Assembly: GCF_011045215.1 (NCBI RefSeq)
Contig: NZ_CP049202.1
Length of the DNA stretch: 64,000 nucleotides
Reading direction: 5' to 3' (one strand)
Source of the DNA: Escherichia coli
Lineage (GTDB): Bacteria > Pseudomonadota > Gammaproteobacteria > Enterobacterales > Enterobacteriaceae
Part shown: piece after piece, positions 1,625 through 63,300 of the stretch
How positions within the stretch are numbered: position 1 is the stretch's first letter
How the letters are laid out: the number at the start of each line of letters is the position of its first letter
Notes under the pieces: model-generated
Told to the model about the DNA's origin: nothing
Seen by the model: only the letters and a program-made list of their open reading frames with translations
Databases searched by the model: none
Made by a program: the position numbers and the translations under genes

Positions 1625-4600
1625 TCAGTCTCCGCCCAGGGTTTTCTCTTTCTGCAGGTCACGAACCATATCCCGCTCCATCTGCTGCAGTCGCTCCTGC
1701 AGCAGATTTTCCCGGGCAACCTCCCGGACCGCTTCCCGCACCCGTTGTGGTTCACGCAGTACACTCTCCGGCAGCGCGGCTTCCCGTTCAGTTATGGCAG
1801 CCCGGTCACGCTCCTGCCCGGCAATCTCCCTGACAGCCTGCTCTGTTTTGCCATCCGGCAGGTCAGGTTTGTTCTCTGCCATTTTACGGACAATTTCATC
1901 TGCGCGACGTTCCGTTTCACGGCGGATGGCCTCTTCAGCCTGCCGCTGTGCCAGTACCTCTGCCGTGACCGGTTCGCCATTTCCGGCCCCCGGCTGGACG
2001 CTGTTGTCCGGAATATCTCCCCACACGCGACCACCGGTGATGGCACCGGGATTCCACGGGCGACCTTCACCGGCAATTCTCACCACCACACCGCTGTCAG
2101 GATTATCACGAGCAATCCGGACGCCATCCTGCATGTTATCAGCCAGCAGACTCTCTCCGTTACGGCTGCCCTGCAGGGCCACGAACTGCGCATCTCCGCT
2201 GCCTTTCACCCGGCCTTCACCGCTGAATCCCCGCAGCCCGTTTCCGTCATCCGTAGTCAGTGGGTTCAGCCAGATACCGGCGGACTTGCCGTTACGGTCA
2301 AAAGCCGGCAGTGCCACATACGGCTGCGGATATTTGCGCCCCGGTGCAATAAACCGTGCAGGACTGTCTCCCCCGGCAAGTCCCGCCTGACGGAGAACGG
2401 CACGCCCTGCCGCCACGTCCCGCAGTTCCCGTGCCGTACTGAACAGTCGCTCTGCATTCATGACCTCCCGGTCAGCTTTCGGCTCCAGCACATCGTGGGC
2501 AGTCCCTTTCTGTACGGCATTGTTGATGGCATCCGTCCAGCCCTGACGGTCATCAGTGTACACCTGCACATGCTGCTTCATACGCGACAGGGCAACGTAG
2601 GCTGACTCAAAGCCGGCCATCTGTTTCCGGCCACCTTCCGTGCCTTCAAGCGCGATGGCAAAGGTTTCACTCGCCCCCTGTGCACCGTGGGCAGTGATGG
2701 CATAGGCCAGGTCAATATGTTGTTCTGCCTGCTCCTGACCGGGGCGAATCACCCGGGTCTGCAGTCCGTCAGAAAGCGTGACACTGTCACCGGAAACCGC
2801 CGTCACCGTCCAGACGCTGTTGGCCACATAGCCGCGCTCCCGGTCACTCTTCGTGAAGCGCATCCGGTCACCGGTCCCCACCCGGATGGTGTCCGGGGTG
2901 TACAGTGTGACACCTTCAGCCACCGCCTCCCGGGGCGAAATCAGCCGCGTGTTACCTTCCGCATCCTGCAGGGTTATCAGCCCGTCACCCTTACTGATAC
3001 CGGCAATCCGGTGATACACATTATCCACCAGGACAAGTGCGTCCCGATGTGTCTCCCAGGTGGAGAGACGACGCAACTCCCCGTCGCGTATATTCGCTGT
3101 GTTCAGGACAGGCACCATGACCTGCTCTTTTCCCAGCTCACCGGCCTTTTCCCGTGCATCATGAATCATGCTGTTCAGTACGCGCCGGTCCTCATTCAGA
3201 TGCGTGACAATCAGCGTCTGCTCCCGTGCTTCCGGCGTCCTGCCGGTATAATCGCGGACAATGGCTTCATACAGTGTCATGGGAATATCCGGAAAAGCCT
3301 CACCTTTCAGCATCGCCTTCTGCTGCGCTTCTGCCAGTTTCGCTTCCTGGCTGTGACTGAACTCCGTCACGGAGTGCTCCGGTACCCATGCGCCCTCCTG
3401 ACGTGGCACCTGAGACGGTTTCACACTCTCAAGCCCGGACAGTGCCCTTTCCACATCCCGGTTAATCAGGCTGTATACCGCCTCCCGCAGCTCCGGCGTC
3501 TGACGCACAATCTCCTTCATGATGGCCACATCGGCAGCACTGCGCGTCTGCTGGAGACGGAAAGGCTGACCGGGCGCGATGGCCTGCAGCTGGTCCGTGT
3601 CACCACTGGCCACGGCACGACCACCACCGGCCGCAATCAGGGCGTATGCCCGTGCCATGTCGGTATTGCCCACCATTGAGCTCTCATCGAGCAGGAACAG
3701 CGTGTTGCTGAAATCCGGCGTTTCTCCGCTGCGCTGCTGCAGCTGCGTGTCATGCAGAAAGGACGCCAGTGTCTGTGCATCCACGCCAGCGCTGCGCATC
3801 TCCCCGACCGCACGGTGCGTGGGCCCCAGCCCCACGACACGGGGACGCTCACTCTCCGGCAGCATGTTCACGGCTGACATCACCGCCCGGAACTGTGTGG
3901 TCTTACCCACACCGGCATAACCCTGCACCACCGTGAAGCGGTCAGAGGTTTCCAGTATCATGCGGGTGGCGGCACGTTGCCCCGACGTCAGTTTCTCCAT
4001 AAGTTCGCCAGGTACTCTCTCCATCAGCGGCGTGACAGCCTCCTTACCTTCGAGAATATGGCGAATAATGCTTTTTTCAGCCTCATATGACGCACGGGAA
4101 ACCAGCAGGTCTGTGCCATAACCTTTTGCCACATCCACATGCAGTAAATCACCGCGTTTTATCTGTGCATCGATTTCCCGCCCCAGGTCAGCAAAACTGG
4201 TTCCTTCTGCAGCAAACGACTTTGCCTCTGTCAGCAGGTCCACATGGCTGAAGGCCAGGTTTTTACTTTCCACCACCGGAAGGGCCAGATGAATGGCCTG
4301 CTGTGCCGGCGTGTGAAGTGCGGACTTCTGATGACTGATAGCGGTTTCCAGCGATGTCTCACCGGCCCGCGCCTTTATCTGCTCAGAAACCACCGTAAAG
4401 GAGGGATGGCGGGCAAGTTTTTCCGCAGTACGGGTTTCATCCAGTGAGGAATACAGCCGGACATCACGACCGCTGCGGGCCAGACCGTTCAGGGTGGCGT
4501 TGTCCATTGCCATCTGTGTGACGGAGGCAAAAACCTTCGCACTGTCGCTGACGGAATGCCCGGGCGTTTCCACCCAGCCGTTCTCCAGCTTCAGTGCCGT

Positions 4601-6895
4601 GAACGGTGAATCAGCCACAGGCAGGGTGGCCGGTTCAGCCCGCCCCGGCACAACAACCGTCATCGCATCTTCACTGACGGATGCCACCTGCAGGCGGTCA
4701 CCGCCGGAGACGCGGAGTCCGGGGATTTGTCCCGTCACCCTCAGACGCTCGCCGTCTGCCACCGGCATTTTTTCCGGCCGGAACAGCGACCAGCTGCTGT
4801 CCAGAGAAGAAATACGCACCACCTGCGTTTCACCCTGCGCATCCCGCAGGGTCAGGCTGTGACTCTGCGCCGTCACCCGGTCTATCACATAGCGGTCATG
4901 ACTGCGTGTCTCCGGGTTCCACTGCTCCATCACCATCCCCGGGCGGTACATATCCCGCAGATAACGGCTCCGGCTGTCCAGCCAGACCGGTGACAGGGCG
5001 GTCATGGTTACTTCCGGGTGTCCGAGCACGCCCTGTGTTTTCAGCTCACTGCGAATGGCCTGTGTCAGTATGGCCTGTTCCCGTACCCCGCTGACCTGTG
5101 CCACGCTCTCTTCTCCGGCTTTCACGCTGGCCGCAAAATCTCCTGCCAGCCGGGCATAGCGGACATTACGGTCCGGTTCACTGATGATGGTGGCCGGTCG
5201 CTGTTCTCCCCCCAGCCAGCGATATGTGTTCACCCCGGCATCCTTCATGGCCATCAGCGCACTGCCTGTACCGGTTCGCTGCCCGCTGTCGGTTATCAGG
5301 ACCTGTACGTTATGACGTGCGGCACCGTCCAGCAGGGTTAACGTCTCTTTCAGGGAGAGTTTTTCGCCCTGGTCAACGATAACAGTACTGCCCGGCGTGA
5401 AGGCCATGCCTTCCAGCAACTGACGACGTCCGGTTATCAGCTCACCGGACAGCCGTTCATCCTGCTTCAGGTTCATCTGCGAGCGACGGTCAGCAGCGAT
5501 AATCTGCACTTCCCGCCCCTGCTCCCGGGCCATCATGACCAGTTCAGCCACCCGCTCACGCTGCCCGGCTGCACCGCCCTGCCCGGACACAATGGCCAGC
5601 GACGGACGGTCCTGTGCCAGAACACTGACCGCATCGCTGTAACCAGCCGTCCGGGGGACACTTTTCTCCGGATGTACGGTCACCCGGTTCTGTTTCATGA
5701 TGTCACGACTGAGTGCCCGGACGGACAGCTCATCGAGCACATGAATTCCTGATGTGAACAGCCCCTTCTCACGGTCGAGGGGGATGAGTTGCTCACGACT
5801 GATGGCCTCATCGATACCGGCGCGTGCCCGTTCAATCACACCATTTTCCGGCGGCAGTATACCGACCGTTCTGGCCAGCACGTCCGTATACGTGAACTGC
5901 ACTTTTCGTTCACTTAATCCGGCAATGGCCTGTGTCACCGCCTGCTGCACATCCGGCCCCTCCAGTGAAACAGCCCCGGGCGCCTGCGTGCGGGTCTCTG
6001 CCCGTTGCTCCGCCGCGTCACGATACGCCCGGATATCGAACCCGGTTTCCTTCAGTGTCTGCATCCACTCGGTCATTTTGATTTCAGGATCGACGTGCTG
6101 TTTGGATTTTCGCGTATCCAGTGCTGCCACATCCCGGGATTTCAGCGAGGCGTCTTCCCCGACGGCCTCCCTGATAGCCTGCGAACGACTGGAAAAGGCC
6201 TCCACCGGTACGCCCGGCATCTCCCACATCCCGTGCTTACCGACCACTTCGGTTTCATAGCCCAGCGCCTCAACCTGCTCTTTCAGCTTTTCCCGGTAGA
6301 GTCTGCCAAAGGCAATCTGATTAGCGTACACATTCTCAATGAACCCTGTTTTTCCCACTTTGTCACTGCTCAGTGTCTTCCACTCGCCGTTATGCTGTGT
6401 AACATTGGCCACCACCGCATGCGTGTGTAACTGTGGTTCCTGATCGCGACTGGTGTCGTGATTAAAAAGCGCCATCACCAGATTACCGGTCAGCACCGTT
6501 TCTGACTGTCCGTCCGTCATAACCCGTGTGGAGGCCAGCGCCTCCACCTGACGGACAGCAAAATCCACGGCCTGGTTATGTGCATCAATAAGACGTTTAT
6601 CACCGCCTAACATGGCCATCACGGAGACACTTTTGGGGGCGGAGAAGGTCAGGTCGTAGCCGGGACGATGCTTATTACTGCCATCCTGCATGCGGCTTAA
6701 ATCCGCTCCGTCCGGCAGCCTGCCCTCCAGAAGACGGGTAAAAACATCCTTATCGACACTGCCCTGCAGCCCCAGCTGTTCAGCCCCCCTGCCGGCCCAG
6801 CGTTCTCCCATGCTGCCCAGCACATAGTAATTATCCTTGTCGGTATAATAGTTACCGGCACTTCCGGCCGATCTGACCTGCGCGATACTCATCAT
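1625..6895 (-). CDS. traI: TraI relaxase/DNA helicase I, 1756 aa
   Basis: N-terminus [24 protein letters not shown], histidine triad region QLHTHAVVAN, P-loop GYAGVGKTT. Same length as F TraI. Confidence 0.97.
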   Translation of the reverse strand: MMSIAQVRSAGSAGNYYTDKDNYYVLGSMGERWAGRGAEQLGLQGSVDKDVFTRLLEGRLPDGADLSRMQDGSNKHRPGYDLTFSAPKSVSVMAMLGGDKRLIDAHNQAVDFAVRQVEALASTRVMTDGQSETVLTGNLVMALFNHDTSRDQEPQLHTHAVVANVTQHNGEWKTLSSDKVGKTGFIENVYANQIAFGRLYREKLKEQVEALGYETEVVGKHGMWEMPGVPVEAFSSRSQAIREAVGEDASLKSRDVAALDTRKSKQHVDPEIKMTEWMQTLKETGFDIRAYRDAAEQRAETRTQAPGAVSLEGPDVQQAVTQAIAGLSERKVQFTYTDVLARTVGILPPENGVIERARAGIDEAISREQLIPLDREKGLFTSGIHVLDELSVRALSRDIMKQNRVTVHPEKSVPRTAGYSDAVSVLAQDRPSLAIVSGQGGAAGQRERVAELVMMAREQGREVQIIAADRRSQMNLKQDERLSGELITGRRQLLEGMAFTPGSTVIVDQGEKLSLKETLTLLDGAARHNVQVLITDSGQRTGTGSALMAMKDAGVNTYRWLGGEQRPATIISEPDRNVRYARLAGDFAASVKAGEESVAQVSGVREQAILTQAIRSELKTQGVLGHPEVTMTALSPVWLDSRSRYLRDMYRPGMVMEQWNPETRSHDRYVIDRVTAQSHSLTLRDAQGETQVVRISSLDSSWSLFRPEKMPVADGERLRVTGQIPGLRVSGGDRLQVASVSEDAMTVVVPGRAEPATLPVADSPFTALKLENGWVETPGHSVSDSAKVFASVTQMAMDNATLNGLARSGRDVRLYSSLDETRTAEKLARHPSFTVVSEQIKARAGETSLETAISHQKSALHTPAQQAIHLALPVVESKNLAFSHVDLLTEAKSFAAEGTSFADLGREIDAQIKRGDLLHVDVAKGYGTDLLVSRASYEAEKSIIRHILEGKEAVTPLMERVPGELMEKLTSGQRAATRMILETSDRFTVVQGYAGVGKTTQFRAVMSAVNMLPESERPRVVGLGPTHRAVGEMRSAGVDAQTLASFLHDTQLQQRSGETPDFSNTLFLLDESSMVGNTDMARAYALIAAGGGRAVASGDTDQLQAIAPGQPFRLQQTRSAADVAIMKEIVRQTPELREAVYSLINRDVERALSGLESVKPSQVPRQEGAWVPEHSVTEFSHSQEAKLAEAQQKAMLKGEAFPDIPMTLYEAIVRDYTGRTPEAREQTLIVTHLNEDRRVLNSMIHDAREKAGELGKEQVMVPVLNTANIRDGELRRLSTWETHRDALVLVDNVYHRIAGISKGDGLITLQDAEGNTRLISPREAVAEGVTLYTPDTIRVGTGDRMRFTKSDRERGYVANSVWTVTAVSGDSVTLSDGLQTRVIRPGQEQAEQHIDLAYAITAHGAQGASETFAIALEGTEGGRKQMAGFESAYVALSRMKQHVQVYTDDRQGWTDAINNAVQKGTAHDVLEPKADREVMNAERLFSTARELRDVAAGRAVLRQAGLAGGDSPARFIAPGRKYPQPYVALPAFDRNGKSAGIWLNPLTTDDGNGLRGFSGEGRVKGSGDAQFVALQGSRNGESLLADNMQDGVRIARDNPDSGVVVRIAGEGRPWNPGAITGGRVWGDIPDNSVQPGAGNGEPVTAEVLAQRQAEEAIRRETERRADEIVRKMAENKPDLPDGKTEQAVREIAGQERDRAAITEREAALPESVLREPQRVREAVREVARENLLQERLQQMERDMVRDLQKEKTLGGD

Positions 6896-9048
6896 CAGAA
6901 ATCATCTCCCGGCTCAACATCCTCCCCGCGCTCCCGGTGCACATTAATGTTCACCTCTTCACGACGCTGCATCTGCTGCTGGATGTCCGGATGATTTTCC
7001 TGTTGCCATGCCTCATAAGCGGCCATATCCACTACTTCACCGGATTCACTGATCCCGGGTGGCAGTTGCTGTTCCATCTCTTCTTCCGGTTTCATTTTCA
7101 GCTCCTGCTCGATCCCCCCTGCCGGAACATTCACACCTGCATCTGACTTCTTATCATTGATGACAGAAGACACTGGCTGTTGTGGCTGTTCAGCCTGAAC
7201 CACGTCTTCTCCGGAAACAACCTCCGGGACATCCGGTTCGAAGAGGCTGGCCATCTGGCGACCTTCTGCTTCTCTTGCGGCAAGCACGGCACTCAGGCGA
7301 TTCTCCATTTCCGGATTGATTTCACGCGGAATAAACTCCGGAGCAACCTTCGGACGTTCCTGATATTTCAGTGAGAGTTTTACTGCCGGATACGGTCCGG
7401 GCAGGGTGACATAACAGGTCAGATCCGGCAGAGACTGAATGTCGGAATAACTGACCAGCGTCTGGCGCTCCATATCCTTACCGGTCGATACCCCGTCACG
7501 CACGGGATCAGCACCGTAGGAATACTGCTCGCTGGCTTTCAGGTGCTCTTTCTCACCAATTTCACCGGCAGCGAACTCTGCAATCTTATGGCTGGGAGAA
7601 CGGAAAAAGGCACGGGTGTTCATGACGTCAAACAGCGTGGCAGCCGCTTTCTCACCGTAGATATCTTCCAGCTGGGCATAGGACTGGATACCAAATACAT
7701 AGCAGCCACCAAACTTACGGGCTTCCGGCAGGATCTCCACCAGGTCCGGCAGTTTGTGTAACGTGGGTAACTCATCACAGAAAAACCACACACGACGGCT
7801 ACGGTTTTCTCCCATTGCCAGCAGACCACGAATGGCAATGGACAGCCACATGGAGATCACCGGCTTCAGGGAGGCATGGGTGTCGGCGTTCGACGAGATA
7901 AACAGCCAGCCGTTTTTCTGATCTTCCCGGACACCACGCATCCAGTCACGGATGGTGAAGGGCTCACCGTTATGCTCAATCCCCTGCAGGTAACGGATGG
8001 CTTTCACGTAGTTGGTCAGCACAGCACGGATGGAAATCGCCGTTTTCTCGATTTTCTCTTCCACCAGGTTGGCCGCCGGTGAATTACGCAGGAAGGTACG
8101 CAGTTTTTCGATTTTGATGGAAAGCAGTGTGTCCACCAGTTTGCTGTAACTGCGGTTGGGGTCATTACGCATCAGGTACGCCGCTTCCGCAAAAATGGTA
8201 CGTCCTGAACCCTGCCAGAACGGGTCCTCTTTTGTGCCCATCGGGATCAGCGTGTTCGCGGTATTATCAAAATCCGGCTGTGTCAGGCACTCCTTCCACA
8301 AATCCCAGGCGGCACAGCGGGCATCCAGCGGATTCAGGATTTTATCGATGGAGGGATCATAGTAACTTTTAACAAATTCCCCTGAACGGTCATAAATCAC
8401 CACCATATCTCCACGCTGACGGGCGTAGTTGGCCAGACGACGGATAACTTCCGACTTACCGGCCCCGACCGTGCCGTGCAGACAGAAGTTCTGGATTTCG
8501 GAATCCCGGATAATCGGCAGGTCGCCAATCCGTATATCGGAGTCCTTGCCGTCTTTTTTCAGCATCCGGGCAACGTCTTTCGGGTTCTCCGTCAGCTGAC
8601 GACCACCTGTGACTTCATTTTCGCTCTGTTGTTTACCCTGACGCCCCAGAATCCAGGAGACAACAAAGAAGGTAATCAGGCAAATAACCAGTGCCACAAC
8701 TGTGGCCAGAACGAATGCGGACCATAGCTGCTCTCCGCACCAGATCATATATTTATCATGCAGTACCTGAGCAGCATTCATCCGGAAGGTTTTGCCGTAA
8801 TACTGGATCTCATATACCGGCTGGGACCTGATTAAATCCCGCATGCCTTCCAGCGTGGTACACCACCAGTAAATACAGCCGTTCACAAACGTCTGCCAGC
8901 TTATTTTTACCCATAAAACCAGACCAACGAGTATCCAGAAAAAAATAAACAGGCAGTAAAGCATGATATTGGCGATCTGGCTGAACATGCGGATACGCAT
9001 GGACGCAATCTGACCGCCCTGGGTCATATCCTTTGCGTTAAAACTCAT
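6895..9048 (-). CDS. traD: TraD type IV coupling protein, 717 aa
   Basis: Two N-terminal TM segments, Walker A GTVGAGKS, acidic Q/E-rich C-terminal tail. Its stop overlaps the traI start (TGATG). Confidence 0.95.
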
Positions 9049-9098: not shown

Positions 9099-9836
9099 TT
9101 AATTCACAGAAACAGACCAGGTGTACCCTGTATGCCGGTGGTGATAACCGCCTGCAGTCCTGCCGGAAGAGACCTTCTTTGTAACAATGTCAGTCAGGCG
9201 CAATACTTCAGACCAGTCACTCCCATGCGGAAACTGGATCTGAATAAAAAGGCGTACCCGTTCACGATGATCCAGAACTGTGTCCGGTTCATAAAGCAGA
9301 CCACTATCAGGAGAAACACGGGACGTTTTATTGATGAGTTCGTATTTATCGGCATGAGACAGTGATGAAAGCGCCCAGGTAATATTTTCGCCCTGATGAC
9401 CATCAATACGACTGTTCCCCGGCGTCCAGGCAATTTCCTGCGCATTCGCCACGATGATCTGTCTCGATACTTCTGCCAGCTTTTTTGAAGTACAGAATAC
9501 CGGTGCCAGCACACACAGGGACAAAAAATTGCAGCTGACCGCTTCCGGTTTAACCGGACTGCTCCCGGATTTTTCAGGAAAAGATATTTTTGTCAGTATT
9601 TCAGTTAATTCCTTATGCCTGAGAGAGTTAATAAAGTGCATGACAAGCATCATGAGAAACAATATAACAATAAGCCCTCCGATAACCACTAAAAGGTCAG
9701 TATCAATATTATTGTTGTACAGATAGTCTTTAGTGGTCGCTGTATTATCCTGTATCACCGGGGGGTATTCAGTTACAGGCTTCTCAGTAAATTGATTATT
9801 CTCACCAACATATTCAGCGATATTGTCTGATGTCAT
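9099..9836 (-). CDS. Hypothetical single-pass membrane protein, 245 aa, cargo between traT and traD
   Basis: ATG at 9836 preceded by GGAGAAAG. One strong TM helix ([22 protein letters not shown]). No recognisable motif. Locally AT-rich. Confidence 0.6.
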
Positions 9837-55178: not shown

Positions 55179-55823
55179 ATGATTACTGTAGTTGGTGGGA
55201 ACAAAGGTGGTTCAGGGAAAACTACCATTGCATCAAACCTGGCTATTGCTCTCGCAAATAAAGGAAGGGAAGTCTGCCTGTTAAACGGAGATCTACAACG
55301 AACAGCCGCAAAACATCATGCGGAACGAGAAGCTGCAGGACTGTTACCAGCAATAACCCTTGTTGAGAAATTTGATAACCTGACACAAACACTACAGGCT
55401 CTGAATGAAAAGTTCGATGATGTAATAGTGGATGTCGCAGGAAGAAACTCAAAGGAATTCATAACGAGTGGAGTTGTCGCACATCAAATAATTGCGCCAC
55501 TACAGTGTTCTCAACCAGATCTGGATACTCTTACAGAACTAGAACAACAGATAGACGCAATGCGTAACCTTAACCCGGAACTTAAGGTTTATTGTTTACA
55601 AAGTATGGCAACAACCAATCCGGTTTTGAGGGGAAATGAGAGAAAAGAATTCCTTGAATATCTTGAAGAATTCCCAACAATTCAAGTCCTTGATTCAGTT
55701 ATTTGTTTCAGAAAAGTCTATCGCGATTGCATGAGCAACGGCACCGGTGTAGTAGAAACGAACAATACAGCAGCCAAAGCAGAAATTGAACATTTAATGA
55801 ATGAGGTATTTGGCCCATGGTGA
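55179..55823 (+). CDS. parA: Small ParA-type (type Ib) partition ATPase, 214 aa
   Basis: Deviant Walker A GGNKGGSGKTT. Confidence 0.85.
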   Translation: MITVVGGNKGGSGKTTIASNLAIALANKGREVCLLNGDLQRTAAKHHAEREAAGLLPAITLVEKFDNLTQTLQALNEKFDDVIVDVAGRNSKEFITSGVVAHQIIAPLQCSQPDLDTLTELEQQIDAMRNLNPELKVYCLQSMATTNPVLRGNERKEFLEYLEEFPTIQVLDSVICFRKVYRDCMSNGTGVVETNNTAAKAEIEHLMNEVFGPW

Positions 55824-56092
55824 AGAAACCCAGCCAGCAAGCATTAAACAGAGCTGCAGTTACGGTAGAACAAGCAGAGGCTCTGGCTCAGCGCCTTGCG
55901 GATAAACCATACGGCGCGCCGGAAAAACCCGAACCAGAAAAACAATGTCGGACGACAATCTCTCTTGGTGAAAGCATGCTTGTCACAATAGAAGATCTGG
56001 CATTGAGGAATAAACGCAATGGTAAAGATCCAAAAAATGTAAGTGCCATCGTCAGAGTAGCCCTTGAGCAATACTTAAAAACACTAACGTAA
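55817..56092 (+). CDS. Small partition adaptor (ParB/ParG-like, RHH C-terminus), 91 aa
   Basis: Overlaps the parA stop. The C-terminal IVRVALEQYL segment is typical of an RHH fold. Confidence 0.6.
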   Translation: MVKKPSQQALNRAAVTVEQAEALAQRLADKPYGAPEKPEPEKQCRTTISLGESMLVTIEDLALRNKRNGKDPKNVSAIVRVALEQYLKTLT

Positions 56093-56229: not shown

Positions 56230-57039
56230 TTATGCGTGTCTGTTTTTCAGCATTGTGACCGCATCGGACTCAGGCATCGAAAACTGCACCCGGTGCCGTG
56301 CAGCCACATCCAGCGCAAACACCTTCGTGTAGACCTCCGTTGAGCTGATGGACTTATGCCCCATCAGGCTCTGCAGGACCTTCAGTGGTATACCGGCATA
56401 CAGCATGTGCATCGCATGGGAATGGCGGAACGTATGTGGCGTGACCGGGACAGAGAACGTCACACCGTCAGTAGCAGCGGCGGCAACCGCCTCCCCAATC
56501 CAGGTCCTGACCGTTCTGTCCGTCACTTCCCAGATCCGCACTTTCTCTGTCCTGCCTGTTCGTTTATTACGCCGTTCCAGAGGAATTTTCAGTGTTGCCA
56601 CCATCGTCTGCAGCTGACTGACGTACCAGGAGTCGGAGAGCGGAACCAGCCGGTGAGTCTGCTGTCCGGCAGGCGTTCTTCCTGCCGTCCTGGCGGCTTT
56701 TTCGGTCCGCTGCTTCAGAGTGGCCAGCTGCACAAACGGATACGGAGGCGCAAGCGAAAAATCCCCCCGCGTCAGCGCCAGTGCTTCATTAATGCGCGCA
56801 CCGGTGTTCCACAGTGTGGCCAGCAGCATCTTGCGGCGCAGATCCGGGACGTAATGGAGCAGGGCACTCACTTCCGGAGCCAGCAGATATTTCGGCAGTT
56901 CATCATGAACCATCGACATCTGGCGAAGTGCCAGAGCTGCCGGATAATCAATGACAACAGGAAGTTGTGGAGACTGTCCGGCAGAATACACTGCCGGTAC
57001 CCTGGCTGCAGACTGGCTGTGTATAACGGAGCCTGACAT
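56230..57039 (-). CDS. resD: ResD tyrosine recombinase (multimer resolution), 269 aa
   Basis: HTFRHSHAMHML and GHKSISSTEVYTKV catalytic motifs. Located directly downstream of ccdB as in F. Confidence 0.85.
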   Translation of the reverse strand: MSGSVIHSQSAARVPAVYSAGQSPQLPVVIDYPAALALRQMSMVHDELPKYLLAPEVSALLHYVPDLRRKMLLATLWNTGARINEALALTRGDFSLAPPYPFVQLATLKQRTEKAARTAGRTPAGQQTHRLVPLSDSWYVSQLQTMVATLKIPLERRNKRTGRTEKVRIWEVTDRTVRTWIGEAVAAAATDGVTFSVPVTPHTFRHSHAMHMLYAGIPLKVLQSLMGHKSISSTEVYTKVFALDVAARHRVQFSMPESDAVTMLKNRHA

Positions 57040-57565
<526 letters not shown>

Positions 57566-58118
57566 AGCACACCTCTTTTTGACATACTTCGGGTATGCAT
57601 ATAAGTATATATTATTATGATGCAAAAATCAGCGCGTAAATACACATACTGTTATCTTATTTTTAGTAAACCTTATTTATTTTACCTTGCGTTATGTTAA
57701 CCAATAAAAATCAAAATCTGACTTATAAAAACAAACCGTAATTATCGCATTCCCGTTTCTGTCAGATCCGACTTTCATGAATATCACAACTTTCCGGAAG
57801 TGTACCACGCTGAGAAAATCATCATATCACTGTTTTCCGCCCCTGCGCGGCGCATCACAGGTCAGGGAGATGACACAACATATAGTGTCATTAGCAGCTG
57901 AATTCAGAACTACATGTTGTGCTGATGGGAAGATGGCGCTGTGCGGCGGGAGAGGAAGATCCGTGACCAGGAGTTTTCGGATCTTCCTGAAGAAAAAGAA
58001 AGATTAATGCCTCTATGTCATCAATTAAAATAGATTACTGTCCAAAATGCATTAATGCTTTTTTTTGATTACAATATCTTGGCACTGTTGCATAAAAGAC
58101 AGAAATCACTCACGGCAC

Positions 58119-61100
58119 TCAGACGTGATTAAACATAGCTATGACAGGATCTGTCATCTCTGCATCCAGCTCCCAGAGATGGGTCATAATACTTTTAAGC
58201 GGATCATCTGCATCTTCCCGGCAGAACGTGCAGAACATCGTATCATCAGGATAACGGAACAGACGTAAACGGCCAAAAGATGAATTCCGTACCAGTAATG
58301 AGTAATTATCCTGACAGTCCGGAACGAAATATATTGTACAGTTGCCAATCATATATTGAAGAACATGTGGCTGATATCCCTTTTCTGGTTTACTTACTCT
58401 TTTTATGCCAAGTTCATTATGTTTATCAGTGCAATATTCAAGTTCGTATAATTTCCTGGAAAAACAATCACCATACACAATGAGAGTGCAATCTTCTTCT
58501 TTTTTCATAAAAATTTTTACTTTATGAAAAAGTTCATCCAGATTGCCTATATCCTCACTCAACTGACCGCGATTAATAAAGAGTTTCCGGTGAACTGTAT
58601 TAAGTATGTTGTCTGCAATTGTTGTTGAGGGAAAAAATGTCGGATCAATTGTGCGTCCAAGTTTCTTTGCCACACTTTCCTTATCAATGCCAATATTAAT
58701 CCATTGTTTTTCCCAGCGTTCTGAAATTCCAGTATCAGGTGTAAACTCAAACAGAGAAAGAAGATGATCTTTCTTAATATCATCAACAACATTCTGAGAG
58801 ATGTTCATATCAATTCTTCTGAAAAGATCGATGTCTGCTTCTGCCTTTATAATATCTGACTTAATACTTTCTTCAAAAGCGGATATGTACATGTCCAGCG
58901 TTCTGTTAAAGAATACAACTCGCGTAGCATACTCCTCCGATGTCTTCAGAAAGTTTTCTGCTACTTCTGTTGTGCTTTTTGTCAGAGATTTCAGCGTATA
59001 AACAATATTTTTTTTATCAGAAAATGAAAAAATCCCTTCACCGATTGCAGTAACCACTTTCTGGCTGATACGTTGTTCAGATACAGACAGCATTACCGCT
59101 ATATCAGCAAATGCAGGGTATAGTGTGTTTAAATCATCAACACTACTCATATAAATCCGCCCGGAAATAACCGGGCCTTTGTTGTTTCTGGTGAGCCTCT
59201 CCACCATATGAGACAAACGTGAAAACCAGTTACTGTGCTCGTCTGCATGGCAGAAAGTGAGACGTAATATAACATCAATAATATCAGTCTGACCTACTAT
59301 TGCCGAAGGTAGTGTATTATATGCACCAGTTGGGGCGACCAGTGAAGGAGACAGTAACCGTTTGATGACAGTGAGCAAATTGACATTTTTTTGTTGTCCC
59401 AGATACCTCACCATATAAGCTGACAGGAACAGGCGGAGATCAGTCATCACATTACGCATTGTCAGGGATAATGCGGCTTTTTCGTTATACGATGCCCCCC
59501 TCAATATGCAGGACTGACAGTTGTCTGAAACAGAGTGCAATAAAAAATCTGGCGTAAGAAAAAGGCTGTGCCACAGATATTCTTCGTGATAATGATTATG
59601 AAACTGCCCCTGATTAAGCCACAGCATAAACATATCAGTACTCAGATCAGTGGCATCAATATCATCAGATGTTATTGCCGTAATAAGCATTTCCATAGAG
59701 CGAAACAAATGTGATACAAGGGCCTCAGTATAGCCAGCAGTATCAACATTATTCTTAAACGTCAGACGCAACCACATATGCCAGCTTTCCCACTCGCCGA
59801 TAAAATGTTGCAGCATTGCAACATAACGTTGCTTCTGGTTCACTGATAACGCCTTGTTTCCAACATTCCAGTCAATCAGTATCTGCCAGATATCACACTG
59901 GGACTGAAGAGCCTGTTGCAACTCTCCGGTTCTGTCTTCTCCCCGATACCGGTAAAAAGACTGAGGAAGATGTATGATCTTTCGAAAATACGTAGATGTG
60001 GTATCCAGTGTTTTCACCACTTCTTCTGCAAGACGGTAGAAATCATTATGAAAAGACTGGCTTAAACTTTGTGGAAAAAATGAAATGGATACATCATCAA
60101 TATAATTTTTATCACCATACTGGAAACATCTTTTCAGTGTAATAAAGGTCGAAACAAGTCTGTCTGCAGCTTCCTCAAACGCCCCCAGATTTCGTTCATC
60201 CAGAGCATCATAAATTTCCCCATAAAAACCTCTGGTGAAATTTAAAAAATTTGTTTTTTCCCATTTGCTTCCACGGATAAAACAGAGCTTAAACAGCTTC
60301 TCCCAGATAGCATTATATCTGATACCGGTTGTAGCCAGAATAACCACTTCGCTGTTATGTATCCCCCACCCAGGTAAGACTCTGATTCTTGCAGGTCCCG
60401 TTCCGACAGGTTTTAATCTCCTGAGGAGAAACAATAATGGAAGTGTATAGATATCTCTCACACATTCATCCATTTTAAGTTTTAACTTCAGAAGATCAGA
60501 CTTTTCCTTCTCCGGAGAATCATAAACATCAACAGAGACATTCAGCCGTCCCATTTGGTTAATATATCTCCCAGGAAGAGCCAACCAGTTTTTTACCATT
60601 GCTGTTCTGATATGTTGCGCCACGACTTTTGAAATAAAATACTTAAGCATAATTCGATCACGCCGGCGATCATCCAGAACATTCAGGCTCTGAATAAAAA
60701 ACCAGATAGACAAACCAATATTCATGATCATCCAGATTATTGCCACTACAACAAGGCAAATATCAAGGTATTTATCCCCCCGGGCAGACAAAAGTTCACT
60801 CACCAGAATAAATGCAGCAAGGGAAAGACCGCTCAGACCTGCAAACATGTATCCTGAGTAAAGCTGATAGGCCGACTGGATATGCTCACGTGTCGATTTT
60901 TTCTGAAAAAGGACGCTGATCAGACCGACAACTAATGGAAATACAATACCAATGATGGTTAATTGTCCACCCAGCAGATCTGAGAGTCCATCTGGAAGCT
61001 TTTCAATCCCCTTAAAATACTGCCTGCCAAATGGAGCCAAGACCGGCCTCAGATACAAACCAGCAAGTACAATCATTATTGCACCAACCCAGAGAATCAA

Positions 61101-61250
61101 CATAGCCCGCCCATAGTATGTCGAGCACCAGGCCAGCAGGCGCTCAAAAACATTCCAGCGGTATTTTCGATATTCAGAATTCATACGTAAATTATGTCTG
61201 AGCTCACGATCAACAAGACTGTTCACGCTTTTAAACAGTTTACTCAACAT
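58119..61250 (-). CDS. Orphan 1043-aa protein: N-terminal 4-5 TM region plus ~850-aa unrecognised cytoplasmic region
   Basis: Single uninterrupted AT-rich ORF. TM helices lie within residues ~45-190. No P-loop or nuclease motif was seen. Cys pairs occur near the C-terminus. Confidence 0.7.
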   Translation of the reverse strand: MLSKLFKSVNSLVDRELRHNLRMNSEYRKYRWNVFERLLAWCSTYYGRAMLILWVGAIMIVLAGLYLRPVLAPFGRQYFKGIEKLPDGLSDLLGGQLTIIGIVFPLVVGLISVLFQKKSTREHIQSAYQLYSGYMFAGLSGLSLAAFILVSELLSARGDKYLDICLVVVAIIWMIMNIGLSIWFFIQSLNVLDDRRRDRIMLKYFISKVVAQHIRTAMVKNWLALPGRYINQMGRLNVSVDVYDSPEKEKSDLLKLKLKMDECVRDIYTLPLLFLLRRLKPVGTGPARIRVLPGWGIHNSEVVILATTGIRYNAIWEKLFKLCFIRGSKWEKTNFLNFTRGFYGEIYDALDERNLGAFEEAADRLVSTFITLKRCFQYGDKNYIDDVSISFFPQSLSQSFHNDFYRLAEEVVKTLDTTSTYFRKIIHLPQSFYRYRGEDRTGELQQALQSQCDIWQILIDWNVGNKALSVNQKQRYVAMLQHFIGEWESWHMWLRLTFKNNVDTAGYTEALVSHLFRSMEMLITAITSDDIDATDLSTDMFMLWLNQGQFHNHYHEEYLWHSLFLTPDFLLHSVSDNCQSCILRGASYNEKAALSLTMRNVMTDLRLFLSAYMVRYLGQQKNVNLLTVIKRLLSPSLVAPTGAYNTLPSAIVGQTDIIDVILRLTFCHADEHSNWFSRLSHMVERLTRNNKGPVISGRIYMSSVDDLNTLYPAFADIAVMLSVSEQRISQKVVTAIGEGIFSFSDKKNIVYTLKSLTKSTTEVAENFLKTSEEYATRVVFFNRTLDMYISAFEESIKSDIIKAEADIDLFRRIDMNISQNVVDDIKKDHLLSLFEFTPDTGISERWEKQWINIGIDKESVAKKLGRTIDPTFFPSTTIADNILNTVHRKLFINRGQLSEDIGNLDELFHKVKIFMKKEEDCTLIVYGDCFSRKLYELEYCTDKHNELGIKRVSKPEKGYQPHVLQYMIGNCTIYFVPDCQDNYSLLVRNSSFGRLRLFRYPDDTMFCTFCREDADDPLKSIMTHLWELDAEMTDPVIAMFNHV

Positions 61251-61608
61251 AAGTAACCTTCATAACCGGATTTATCCTCTGATTTCACTGCCAGAATGAT
61301 ACGTTGATTTACCTATTTTTATAACTGTGAATCAAGCTCAGCTCAGTTCCAGACTCCGACAAGCCAGACAGATATTGATTCCAGACTTTGTTATAAGATA
61401 TTGACTAGCTCACTCTTAAGAACTAATTTTAAAATTTTGTTGATAACATCTTTCAGCCTCTCTGGTTTTCTAGGCCCAAGCCAGCAACGTCAGCCCCCAC
61501 AGCTCCTAAGCTCCTATAGTTGGATTAATATGAGCGAAGCTGTCGAACTAGCGTTACCGGACGAAGAAGTTCTTCTGTTCAGGACCGCAAAGACATGGAA
61601 ACGATGTT

Positions 61609-63300
61609 AGGCTCTTATTGTGTTAACCACGAAATTAATCCAGCATCGTTGTCCGGCAACCTCTGTTCCAACTTTTCCCTGTCATGCTGGATCAGGTGTC
61701 TTAGCTGAGCCACTGTTACTGGTACTGTCCACCTCCACCGCATAACAGGCCGAAGCCACAACATTCATAGAAAATGTTGTTTTTTATCTCCCTTCTCGCC
61801 GCCTCTGTCAAAGCCAAGGGTCATGTACAGGCAATAAAGAACCTTTAGGGGAATGTCACGAACGGTGCAAAAATGGTTCTTCCGCAACTTGGGGGAAGGA
61901 AAGAAAAAGGATCTAAGCTGTTTTAAGTTATGGGTAACGCAATGCACTCTCTTAAGACACTTCTACAGTTACCTTGCAGATGGCAATGCAGTCGACAAAT
62001 AATTAGCTCTGACGGTATAACCCTCCATCTCCGCGGAAAACGCAAAACAGCACAATGCCCTGAATGCTTTAAGCGTAGCGATTCTGTTCATAGTTGTCGC
62101 CGGCTGGATACAGCATCTACCCTGTGCAGGCCAGACGCTATGGCTTGTATTTTCCGTCCGCCACTAGTACTGCCGTAACCCAGCTTGTTCACGTAAAATT
62201 TTTGCCGAGTCGCTTGCTCCCTTCGCCGGTTCACACCAGCAGTCTTCACTGGCATTACAAAATTTGCAACGTCAACTGGGATTAATAGCCGGAGGTGAGG
62301 CCGGAAAACGAGCAGCAACGGCAGTGGGTCTCCGTTGCAGTGCAGATACTCTTCTTCGCAGGGTTATCAATACCCCGGAGACGAGACTGTCAGGCGCGCT
62401 CCATGTCAGTATTAATGAGTGGAGGTGGCCATCGGGGCCACCGTTACGGTACGTTAATTGTCAATCTTGATACTCACCGTCCCCTCGCCCTGCTTCCCGG
62501 CCGTGAGCAGTGTACACTGGCCACCAGGTTCAGAAAATATCCGGAAATACAGGTTGTCTCGCGTGATCGTAGTGGAGTCTATGCGACAGCAGCATGTGAG
62601 GGTGCACCTCAGGCCAGGCAGGTGGCTGATCGATGGCATCTGCTAAATAATATTGACGATGCGCCTGAACGAATGATGTACAGACATATACCTCTGATAC
62701 TCTTGTTGCCCCAAAGAAATCACCTGAGCCATAACTGCCTGTGCCTGCAGCATCGCTCCGTTGTCCGGAATGCCTTAAACAGCAAACCAGCAAAAAACGG
62801 CATCAGCGTTGGACAAAGGTTATGGCCCTGCATAACAAGGGATGTAGTTTCAGGGAAATATCCCGTATTACAAGCCTGCCGCGTGTGACAGTCAGTCGCT
62901 GGGTGCGTTCAGGAACATTCCCTGAAATGTCAACCATGCCTCCAAAGCGAGGGCTTCTGGCCTCATTTAGAGAGTGGTTAAAAGAGCAACGAGAAAGTGG
63001 TAATTATAACGCCAGCCGGATATGGCGGCCCGGGGTTTACAGGCAGTGAAACCATCGTCAGGGATGCTGTTGCCAAATGGCGTAAAGGTTGGATCCAACC
63101 GGTTACTACTGCCGCCAGACTTCCTTCAGTGTCCTGAGTAAGCCGCTGGTTGATGCCCTAGAGAAGTATGTACAACTGGACCAGAGTAAAGCACACCTTG
63201 CTGTCACGGGTGACCGGCCAGATACATGAATCTGCAGATAGATATATCATCAGAGACACCCTTTTATTTCGCGAATAAGTGTCTGTAATAACGCCGATGC
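61609..63300 (+). mobile_element. Decayed ISL3-family insertion sequence (transposase broken into several frames)
   Basis: Candidate IR ggctcttattg at 61609. Fragments carry zf-ISL3-like CPEC...VHS..RR and the DDE region HRYGTLIVNLDTHRPLALLPGRE...VVSRDRSGVYA...QVADRWHLLNN. Confidence 0.6.

Follow-up and report, generated by a model that had tools for sequence, protein, structure and literature searches.

A plasmid gene of a widespread membrane protein family with a predicted HK97 capsid-like domain is a candidate single-gene anti-phage determinant

Introduction

Lit, encoded by the prophage e14, and PifA, encoded by plasmid F, are abortive-infection proteins that are triggered by phage major capsid proteins, and PifA acts at the membrane. 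Both are single proteins carried by mobile elements, and both share their cargo slots with members of another gene family, which is the subject of this report. The member on which our analysis centres lies in a stretch of 64,000 nucleotides of Escherichia coli plasmid DNA (hereafter the window; contig NZ_CP049202.1 of RefSeq assembly GCF_011045215.1), where it occupies positions 58119..61250 of the minus strand and encodes 1043 amino acids. Its product is predicted to join four transmembrane (TM) helices to a C-terminal domain with the HK97 capsid fold. We place at about even the chance that it is a single-protein anti-phage determinant, working by abortive infection or exclusion, with a capsid-related action in some form.

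The comparison with Lit and PifA extends to the proposed class of trigger, which would again be head proteins, but not to homology. Lit and PifA are, respectively, a zinc metallopeptidase and a KAP-family P-loop nucleoside triphosphatase (NTPase), and neither domain occurs in the 1043-residue protein, whose link to the capsid would reside in its own predicted capsid-like look rather than in known capsid binding. Proteins of the CapRel(SJ46) type are similar in plan, with a variable phage-recognition end and a constant output end in one polypeptide and with capsid protein as the same proposed trigger. However, CapRel is a non-homologous, soluble toxin-antitoxin fusion that carries a pyrophosphokinase toxin, whereas the constant end here is a 4-TM module of unassigned activity. 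The likeness to RexB of the lambda RexAB system and to KwaA of Kiwa lies in the use of a small multi-pass inner-membrane module as the output or anchor of a defence system, and four is also the number of TM helices in KwaA and RexB. Each of those is a small protein of its own that works with a partner, whereas the present protein is a single chain without one and gives no PADLOC or Pfam match to them. Finally, PrrC and RloC occupy the same nested hsdM-hsdS-X-hsdR position as family members in two genera, but they are soluble anticodon nucleases with an ABC-type ATPase domain, and our protein has neither domain.

A second set of comparisons concerns the capsid fold. HK97-fold shells are built by the major capsid proteins of tailed phages, by the floor domain of the herpesvirus major capsid protein and by encapsulins. 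The present family has no sequence similarity to any of these, its predicted HK97-like domain forms the C-terminal quarter of a membrane protein behind four TM helices and a solenoid, and no portal, protease, scaffold or cargo-enzyme genes lie near its members. The Ccm protein of Staphylococcus aureus pathogenicity islands (SaPIs), and other satellite capsid homologs that interfere with head assembly of the helper phage, resemble it as capsid-fold proteins on mobile elements. Ccm, however, is free-standing and co-assembles into small capsids for the satellite's own packaging, whereas the protein described here is membrane-anchored, four times larger and not accompanied by satellite packaging genes. 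Mammalian Fv1 and other Gag-derived restriction factors offer an analogy only, in that a capsid-derived or capsid-shaped gene blocks viruses by engaging the capsid; they belong to a different domain of life, have a different fold and no evolutionary relation to this family, and the bacterial function is hypothetical.

The protein is thus homologous to none of Lit, PifA, CapRel, Ccm, PrrC, RloC, RexB or KwaA. We found no published description of the family, in the DefensePredictor paper or elsewhere, or of any membrane-anchored HK97-fold protein, although our coverage of the literature was incomplete and a prior description is possible. On the basis of the structural models we regard the architecture as probably new in kind, and we advance the function as a hypothesis.

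Predicted structure and conservation

Structure prediction with AlphaFold2 gave a full-length model with a mean predicted local distance difference test score (pLDDT) of 82.9 and a predicted template modelling score of 0.68. Four parts are modelled, namely a 4-TM module, a stalk helix with a small alpha/beta domain, an alpha-solenoid of about 430 residues, and the C-terminal domain, which reached a pLDDT of 93 when modelled separately. This last domain is predicted with high confidence to have the HK97 capsid fold. Its elements are a long helix of 32 residues (771-802), two helices flanked by strands (875-892 and 904-915) and a long C-terminal strand (1019-1032). The fold was recovered from two separate models, one prediction input being a sub-alignment of 69 sequences, and by two search programs. 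Structural matches to the C-terminal domain (match values in brackets) included encapsulins (10-11), lambda gpE (10.6), 80alpha (10.2), HK97 gp5 (10.0), SaPIbov5 Ccm (9.7) and herpesvirus capsid floors (9-10). With the full model as the Foldseek query, all matches with a probability of at least 0.89 were capsid proteins, from Bas63, phi29, T4 (gp24 and gp23), lambda, HK97 and phiKZ, except one designed helical repeat (7rdr); the remaining matches, of lower probability, were generic solenoids or designed helical proteins.

What places a protein in the HK97 superfamily is here seen in part only, as the predicted fold is present while sequence membership and the context of a shell system are lacking. 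No gene for a portal, terminase, protease, scaffold or encapsulin cargo enzyme was found in the roughly 30 neighbourhoods examined. We also observed that the C-terminal domain of one distant member gives a weak match to SU10_MCP, a phage major capsid protein family; this match (E 0.02) is not significant alone and is the only sequence-level hint toward the fold.

Hydropathy analysis places four membrane helices at residues 44-75, 89-118, 132-156 and 158-189. Clusters of basic residues precede TM1, follow TM4 and lie in the connection from TM2 to TM3, a charge distribution that fits a topology in which both ends of the protein are cytoplasmic. Such a topology would put the capsid-like domain in the cytoplasm, where phage heads assemble. 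The membrane module is also the most conserved part of the protein. Mean pairwise column identity is 0.78 in TM2 and 0.68 in TM3 compared with 0.27-0.34 elsewhere, and Q96, T98, P105, G109, Q116, K118, S119, S132, G133, G138, S140 and G141 of the TM2-TM3 segment are invariant; W173, N177, F184 and F185 of TM4 are also listed among the invariant columns. The solenoid has an intermediate value (0.34) and a scatter of invariant residues (N382, W455, W461, E488, D539, W544, N600, D604, R663, G697 and R698), and its only structural matches, of low probability, are designed helical repeats and solenoids of the HEAT/PCI type. Residues 193-333 range from 0.27 to 0.32, and the small alpha/beta domain (236-333) and the C-terminal domain, both at 0.27, are the most divergent parts. 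Such a pattern is consistent with an effector or anchor that stays constant, coupled to a recognition end that evolves rapidly.

These results refine an initial annotation of the gene that had been made from its sequence alone. It had placed four or five TM helices between residues 45 and 190, and the location was right, although there are exactly four. The helical region of some 700 residues that it had proposed is indeed helical at 194-233 and throughout 335-830, but a small alpha/beta domain (about 240-330) interrupts it. Its description of a protein with no recognisable domains holds for sequence families, as none in Pfam, NCBIfam, PADLOC or PHROG is significant, but not at the level of structure, where the HK97 fold is predicted. 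The paired C-terminal cysteines that it had singled out are present in the window allele and are not conserved across the family. C971 is the only invariant residue among 16 cysteines (54 sequences) and the sole invariant column of the C-terminal alignment, and we have rejected a zinc-binding or disulfide-bonded cysteine-cluster domain on these grounds. Its failure to find a defensible nuclease, HEPN or Walker-type signature was borne out, as no HEPN, nuclease or NTPase motif emerged from the conserved columns.

Distribution and selection

The exact 1043-residue protein is recorded on 333 contigs. A word-indexed search found 101 relatives, which fall into tiers of 88-100% identity on E. coli plasmids, 37-41% in many Enterobacterales and 23-29% in a set reaching Pseudoalteromonas. 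An exhaustive profile search enlarged the family to 750 representative clusters, mainly from Gammaproteobacteria, with 304 of them at E<=1e-30, and when a single genome of each species was scanned, members also came to light in Shewanella, Alteromonas, Acinetobacter, Psychrobacter, Vibrio and a Desulforhopalus. Among the 150 best matches listed, nearly all non-fragments are 1030-1150 residues long and align to the profile from end to end, and the full-length architecture is kept down to about 22% identity. PADLOC-DB v2.0.0 contained 0 families matching the window protein even at E<=1, and Pfam searches with eight distant members returned nothing significant.

Within E. coli the gene is rare. 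The window allele occurs in 38 of 5426 complete genomes, always on a plasmid; 20 of these copies are full-length, and the remainder are fragments beside insertion sequences (ISs) or split open reading frames (ORFs). A paralog of 39% identity is present on about 350 plasmids of IncF and related types in PLSDB, including the multiresistance plasmid pIP1206 and Klebsiella IncF plasmids, and a chromosomal paralog is found in 11 of 5426 E. coli genomes. Such a scarce and uneven distribution, in which copies have often degenerated into fragments or split ORFs, is typically seen for accessory defence genes that are costly. Elsewhere in the family, 6 of 23 species-representative genomes have the gene split into two or three ORFs, apparently as pseudogenes, and the protein collection also holds many short family fragments. 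In one E. coli strain from seawater, MB06102, the plasmid allele coexists with the chromosomal paralog at a prophage end (NZ_JBRNIN010000002.1 and NZ_CM129889.1), so the two are not mutually exclusive.

The ORF is a real, intact and constrained gene. Across five close alleles, the ratio of nonsynonymous to synonymous divergence (dN/dS) is 0.19-0.28 for the whole gene, and every domain of the protein is under purifying selection. In the TM2-TM3 segment dN is 0 at a dS of 0.12-0.28 in 8 of 10 allele pairs, the other two having too little synonymous divergence to judge. The HK97-like domain has a dN/dS of 0.27-0.40, above that of the solenoid in seven of the ten pairs. Between the window allele and another (locus L045, 3001-6132), dS rises from 0.015 over residues 1-192 to 0.53 over residues 193-333; because synonymous divergence differs so sharply between segments of the same allele pair, we conclude that alleles recombine within the gene.

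A mobile single-gene cassette in the lit and pif slots

Alleles at 90-97% nucleotide identity occupy unrelated plasmid settings, and only a stretch of about 3.26 kb, comprising the gene with 71-84 bp 5' of the ATG and 51-59 bp 3' of the stop codon, is common to them. The settings are the ccdAB-resD region of the window, a RelE/ParE pair beside a Tn7-like element, a position adjoining RepFII repA and another adjoining Tn3. A search of the cassette ends found no terminal repeats and no target duplications. The initial annotation had called the gene an orphan without a partner. Relatives do exist in large numbers, but the second half of that claim stands, as an all-against-all BLAST comparison of the four neighbours on either side revealed no recurrent partner gene in 28 loci, and Pfam and PADLOC scans of 111 neighbours agree with this absence. 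The gene therefore travels alone, as a horizontally mobile single-gene cassette.

Two of the sites that family members occupy are cargo slots for known abortive-infection genes. The chromosomal E. coli paralog lies between icd and the intE-xisE genes of an e14-type prophage (locus L042, 5001-8123). In K-12, the same icd-intE slot of e14 (1196209-1200806) holds ymfD, ymfE and lit, and the alternative cargo is the family paralog with a gene for an uncharacterised 156-residue protein. This end of the prophage resembles a defence slot with exchangeable content. On the window plasmid, F-backbone homology extends from resD across ccdA as far as position 58000, and about 60 bp separate this point from the start of the cassette. 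The same junction in plasmid F leads to pifC and a gene for a 741-residue P-loop NTPase, which we take to be PifA. The junction about 375 bp upstream of ccdA (window 56245-58000; plasmid F locus 4446-8559) is a cargo boundary in F-type backbones, followed by pifC-pifA in F and by the cassette in the window plasmid. A KAP NTPase that adjoins a family member in Pantoea shares 39% identity with this F protein across 743 residues.

Several further observations concern mobility. One close allele (L044, 1-2440) lies beside a Tn7-like transposition module (TnsA and a Mu-type transposase) and a CopG-RelE/ParE pair, and toxin-antitoxin pairs of three kinds (ccdAB, vapBC and CopG-RelE/ParE) adjoin family members on IncF plasmids. 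In Pantoea stewartii and Pectobacterium brasiliense, the family gene is preceded, 277 bp upstream, by a gene for a 200-residue tyrosine recombinase (9122-9724 in both loci; the two recombinases 94% identical), and a relative of it adjoins the family gene on the opposite strand in Pantoea sp. B65 (9140-9790). Recombinase and family gene could form a mobile two-gene unit or a switch. A fim-like invertible promoter between the two was considered for the P. stewartii and P. brasiliense loci and rejected, as we saw no convincing flanking inverted repeats.

Genomic contexts of relatives

The strongest evidence from context comes from three operons in which the family gene is embedded among restriction genes, two of type I restriction-modification (R-M) systems and one DISARM-like. 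In Aliikangiella and in Psychromonas it stands between hsdS and hsdR in an hsdM-hsdS-X-hsdR operon, with overlapping or abutting reading frames. A very distant member is found inside a DISARM-like operon (in order, helicase/DUF1998, SNF2, an MmeI-type methyltransferase, the family gene and PLD), where it starts one base past the end of the methyltransferase gene.

Looser associations are also seen. A relative directly follows McrBC on an integrative and conjugative element (ICE) of Salmonella, another adjoins a type I R-M system on an integrase island of Providencia, others adjoin KAP NTPases in Pantoea and Pectobacterium, and one on a P4-like element adjoins an AAA_15/21 ATPase. Further relatives are carried by ICEs and by plasmids with type IV secretion systems (T4SSs). 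The IncF paralog lies between vapBC and a DUF3800 gene on pIP1206 and the Klebsiella IncF plasmids, and pIP1206 also has HsdR and an S-4TM effector close by. The island on that plasmid (L016, 1-13516) contains HsdR, an 'S-4TM family putative pore-forming effector' with a partner gene, a 712-residue AAA ATPase, vapBC and DUF3800, and the segment from the AAA ATPase to DUF3800 is common to E. coli and Klebsiella plasmids.

In a hand-curated sample of about 30 non-redundant loci, some 9-10 have recognisable defence genes within 10 kb. For E. coli, the proportion of genes that lie within ten genes of a known defence gene has been put at 2% overall and at 17% for known defence genes (PMC13092281), a benchmark whose definition differs from that of our tally, such that the comparison is only indicative.

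Functional interpretation

Given these contexts, we believe that the gene probably has a role in defence. The initial annotation had likewise proposed a stand-alone defence or exclusion gene, and this proposal is upheld by the lack of a partner, by the rare and patchy distribution, and by the presence of relatives in defence slots and restriction operons. Its specifics regarding cysteines, domains and likeness to abortive-infection proteins were wrong or incomplete, and the resemblance that it had drawn to known membrane sensor/effector proteins of that type is backed by no homology.

How such a role would be carried out is a more tentative matter. In the mechanism that we propose, the protein would be anchored in the inner membrane by its four helices with both ends in the cytoplasm, and the HK97-fold domain, held off the membrane by the alpha-solenoid, would act as a capsid look-alike. 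This domain would engage head-assembly components (major capsid protein capsomers, scaffold, prohead protease or portal) through the type of contact that capsid proteins make with each other. Engagement might then be signalled through the solenoid to the conserved 4-TM module, such that the membrane is compromised and the infection aborted, or head assembly might simply be trapped and poisoned at the membrane. The HK97 fold would, if so, have been taken over as the recognition end of a membrane-anchored immune protein, with the look-alike joining or binding assembling heads and triggering or causing the failure of infection, an idea that we consider possible rather than probable. The complete scheme, with a capsid-shaped sensor that engages head assembly and a 4-TM module that provides output or anchoring, is accordingly offered as a tentative proposal.

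Several results weigh against a capsid-sensing defence protein. Our searches revealed no homology to any validated defence protein, the copy in the window has no recognised defence neighbour except the ccdAB toxin-antitoxin pair, several members have ordinary metabolic or housekeeping neighbours (in Kosakonia, Acinetobacter, Shewanella, Oceanisphaera and Psychrobacter), PADLOC matched none of ten large unknown neighbours, and the family is absent from 50,697 phage records or genomes searched with tblastn. The protein has no known catalytic or pore-forming motif, and the output step is therefore a guess. A profile built on residues 1-200 retrieved nothing beyond fragments of family members, with no other architecture and no fusion of the TM module to another sensor, and modularity thus provides no evidence for this module as an effector. 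With regard to the fold, the best Foldseek E-value for the full model is 2.9e-3, with none at E<=1e-3; the C-terminal profile matched nothing among PDB sequences at E<=10, and the whole-family profile gave chance-level matches only; and no capsid or encapsulin Pfam family recurs among 16 C-terminal domains at E<=10. Because there is no sequence-level link, the assignment of a capsid fold rests on the AlphaFold models. If the assignment were a modelling artefact or reflected a convergent alpha/beta arrangement, the C-terminus would be a novel domain with no relation to capsids. This reading, which we regard as quite improbable, draws on the missing sequence link, on the weak E-values, on the 4-14% identity of the structural alignments with capsid proteins and on the secondary structure around the predicted spine helix (771-802), where solenoid helices precede it and the canonical N-arm and E-loop could not be recognised at the level of secondary structure. 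A beta hairpin (835-856) lies beyond that helix.

Even with a genuine capsid fold, the domain need not recognise capsids. It might serve purely as an assembly scaffold, with five or six chains gathering 20-24 TM helices into a large gated pore or platform, while another part of the protein, such as the solenoid or the small alpha/beta domain, would sense the trigger. Since pentamers and hexamers are the natural assemblies of capsid-fold proteins, the predicted fold itself is consistent with this alternative, as are the small residues and glycines in which TM2 and TM3 are rich, a composition that would suit tight helix packing in oligomers. The small alpha/beta domain is as divergent as the HK97-like domain and is an equally possible variable sensor, and the invariant polar and aromatic residues of the solenoid could form a binding site. 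However, one would expect strong conservation in a domain used purely for oligomerisation, and the HK97-like domain is among the least conserved parts of the protein; on these grounds we judge a scaffold-only role to be unlikely. At the other extreme, the gene could be a relic, still decaying, of a structural gene that once belonged to a virus or other element, namely a capsid protein accidentally fused to membrane sequences and now without function. Many copies are indeed truncated, split or interrupted by ISs, but purifying selection on every domain and an architecture kept uniform over 750 clusters make this very unlikely, and the genes that would be expected to accompany a structural remnant (portal, terminase, protease or scaffold) are missing.

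It is also appropriate to ask whether the family is concerned with defence at all. Members could be cargo of mobile elements with a function in conjugation-related surface or entry exclusion, stress tolerance, transport or colonisation, and their proximity to R-M genes could reflect the general clustering of accessory genes. Many copies do reside on conjugative plasmids and ICEs beside T4SS and relaxase genes, and several chromosomal copies are without defence neighbours. Database labels for relatives are 'hypothetical' apart from stray instances of 'chromate transporter' or 'MFS transporter', which no model supports. We have rejected a transporter identity, given that no Pfam or NCBIfam transporter family matches, that the best transporter-like match, SLAC1, reaches only 13 bits (E 0.046) against a cut-off of 27.9, and that the transporters named have more TM helices than the four seen here. 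The occurrence of the paralog at a prophage end and on chromosomes in non-conjugative contexts speaks against a role specific to conjugation, and the translationally coupled embeddings in type I R-M and DISARM-like operons are difficult to explain by loose co-location. We therefore view a non-defence function as unlikely and retain the anti-phage interpretation as our working model.

The locus and its surroundings

Features of the gene and cassette are collected in Table 1. The position, size and isolation of the ORF were as first annotated, with 493 bp separating it from the ccdA ORF on one side and about 364 bp from the nearest small ORF on the other. It is, as had been claimed, the largest ORF outside the tra region, second in the window only to a tra-region ORF of 1756 residues, and its AT-richness relative to the backbone is confirmed by a G+C content of 0.402 (0.38 at third codon positions) compared with 0.508 for the rest of the window. 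Its reported placement between the ccdAB-resD module and decayed IS elements is equally correct. The ccdA, ccdB and resD genes (the last a resD-type integrase) lie downstream on the same strand, and a decayed ISL3 transposase lies upstream.

Table 1. Coordinates of the cassette, the gene and the parts of its product within the window
Feature	Position	Strand	Remarks
Mobile single-gene cassette, ~3.26 kb	58060..61321	-	Stretch common to alleles in unrelated plasmid contexts; blastn against three alleles' loci
Palindrome AAAAAGCATTAATGCATTTT, 3' edge of cassette	58044..58063	-	Possible weak terminator, tentative; not called by consensus terminator scan
Coding sequence, 1043 aa + stop	58119..61250	-	ATG start; RefSeq WP_012775851.1, annotated 'hypothetical protein'
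Shine-Dalgarno-like GAAGG	61257..61261	-	6 nt 5' of ATG; read from sequence
Residues 1-43, basic N-terminal helices (9 K+R)	61122..61250	-	Predicted cytoplasmic; positive-inside rule
Residues 44-192, 4-TM module, best-conserved part	60675..61121	-	Hydropathy, invariant columns
Residues 193-333, basic juxtamembrane stalk helix (194-233) and small alpha/beta domain (~240-330)	60252..60674	-	AlphaFold2 secondary structure
Residues 334-770, all-alpha solenoid	58941..60251	-	AlphaFold2 model; all-helical region runs 335-830
Residues 771-1043, HK97-fold (capsid-like) domain	58122..58940	-	Predicted structure

The overlapping short ORFs at 61850-63100, upstream of the gene, represent a frameshifted and truncated transposase of the ISL3 family according to the annotation of near-identical plasmids. 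Just past resD, at 55179-56092, there is a small partition or regulatory pair consisting of a ParA/MipZ-like ATPase (214 residues) and a CopG-type ribbon-helix-helix protein (91 residues), which is separate from the finding reported here. An Rfam scan of positions 57000-62500 gave no match, and a promoter scan found fewer consensus sites than in shuffled sequence.

Implications

Should the fold prediction be correct, this family would represent a third use of the HK97 fold, after virus capsids (with gene-transfer agents and satellites) and encapsulin compartments, and one in which the fold serves as just one terminal domain of a membrane protein. If the interpretation as a capsid-fold immune protein is also correct, it would be the first cellular use of the fold that is neither shell nor compartment, and a bacterial counterpart of Fv1-like capsid-derived restriction factors. 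The family would then make it possible to test directly whether an immune sensor can arise by taking on the shape of the viral component that it detects.

A defence role would mean that a widespread single-gene system, with its 750 clusters, has been missed by current defence catalogues, and the presence of a paralog on about 350 plasmids of IncF and related types would be relevant to predicting the phage susceptibility of clinical strains. Even if the proposed mechanism is wrong, the family is a clearly defined and tractable unknown, carried as a 3.26-kb cassette with obvious mutational targets.

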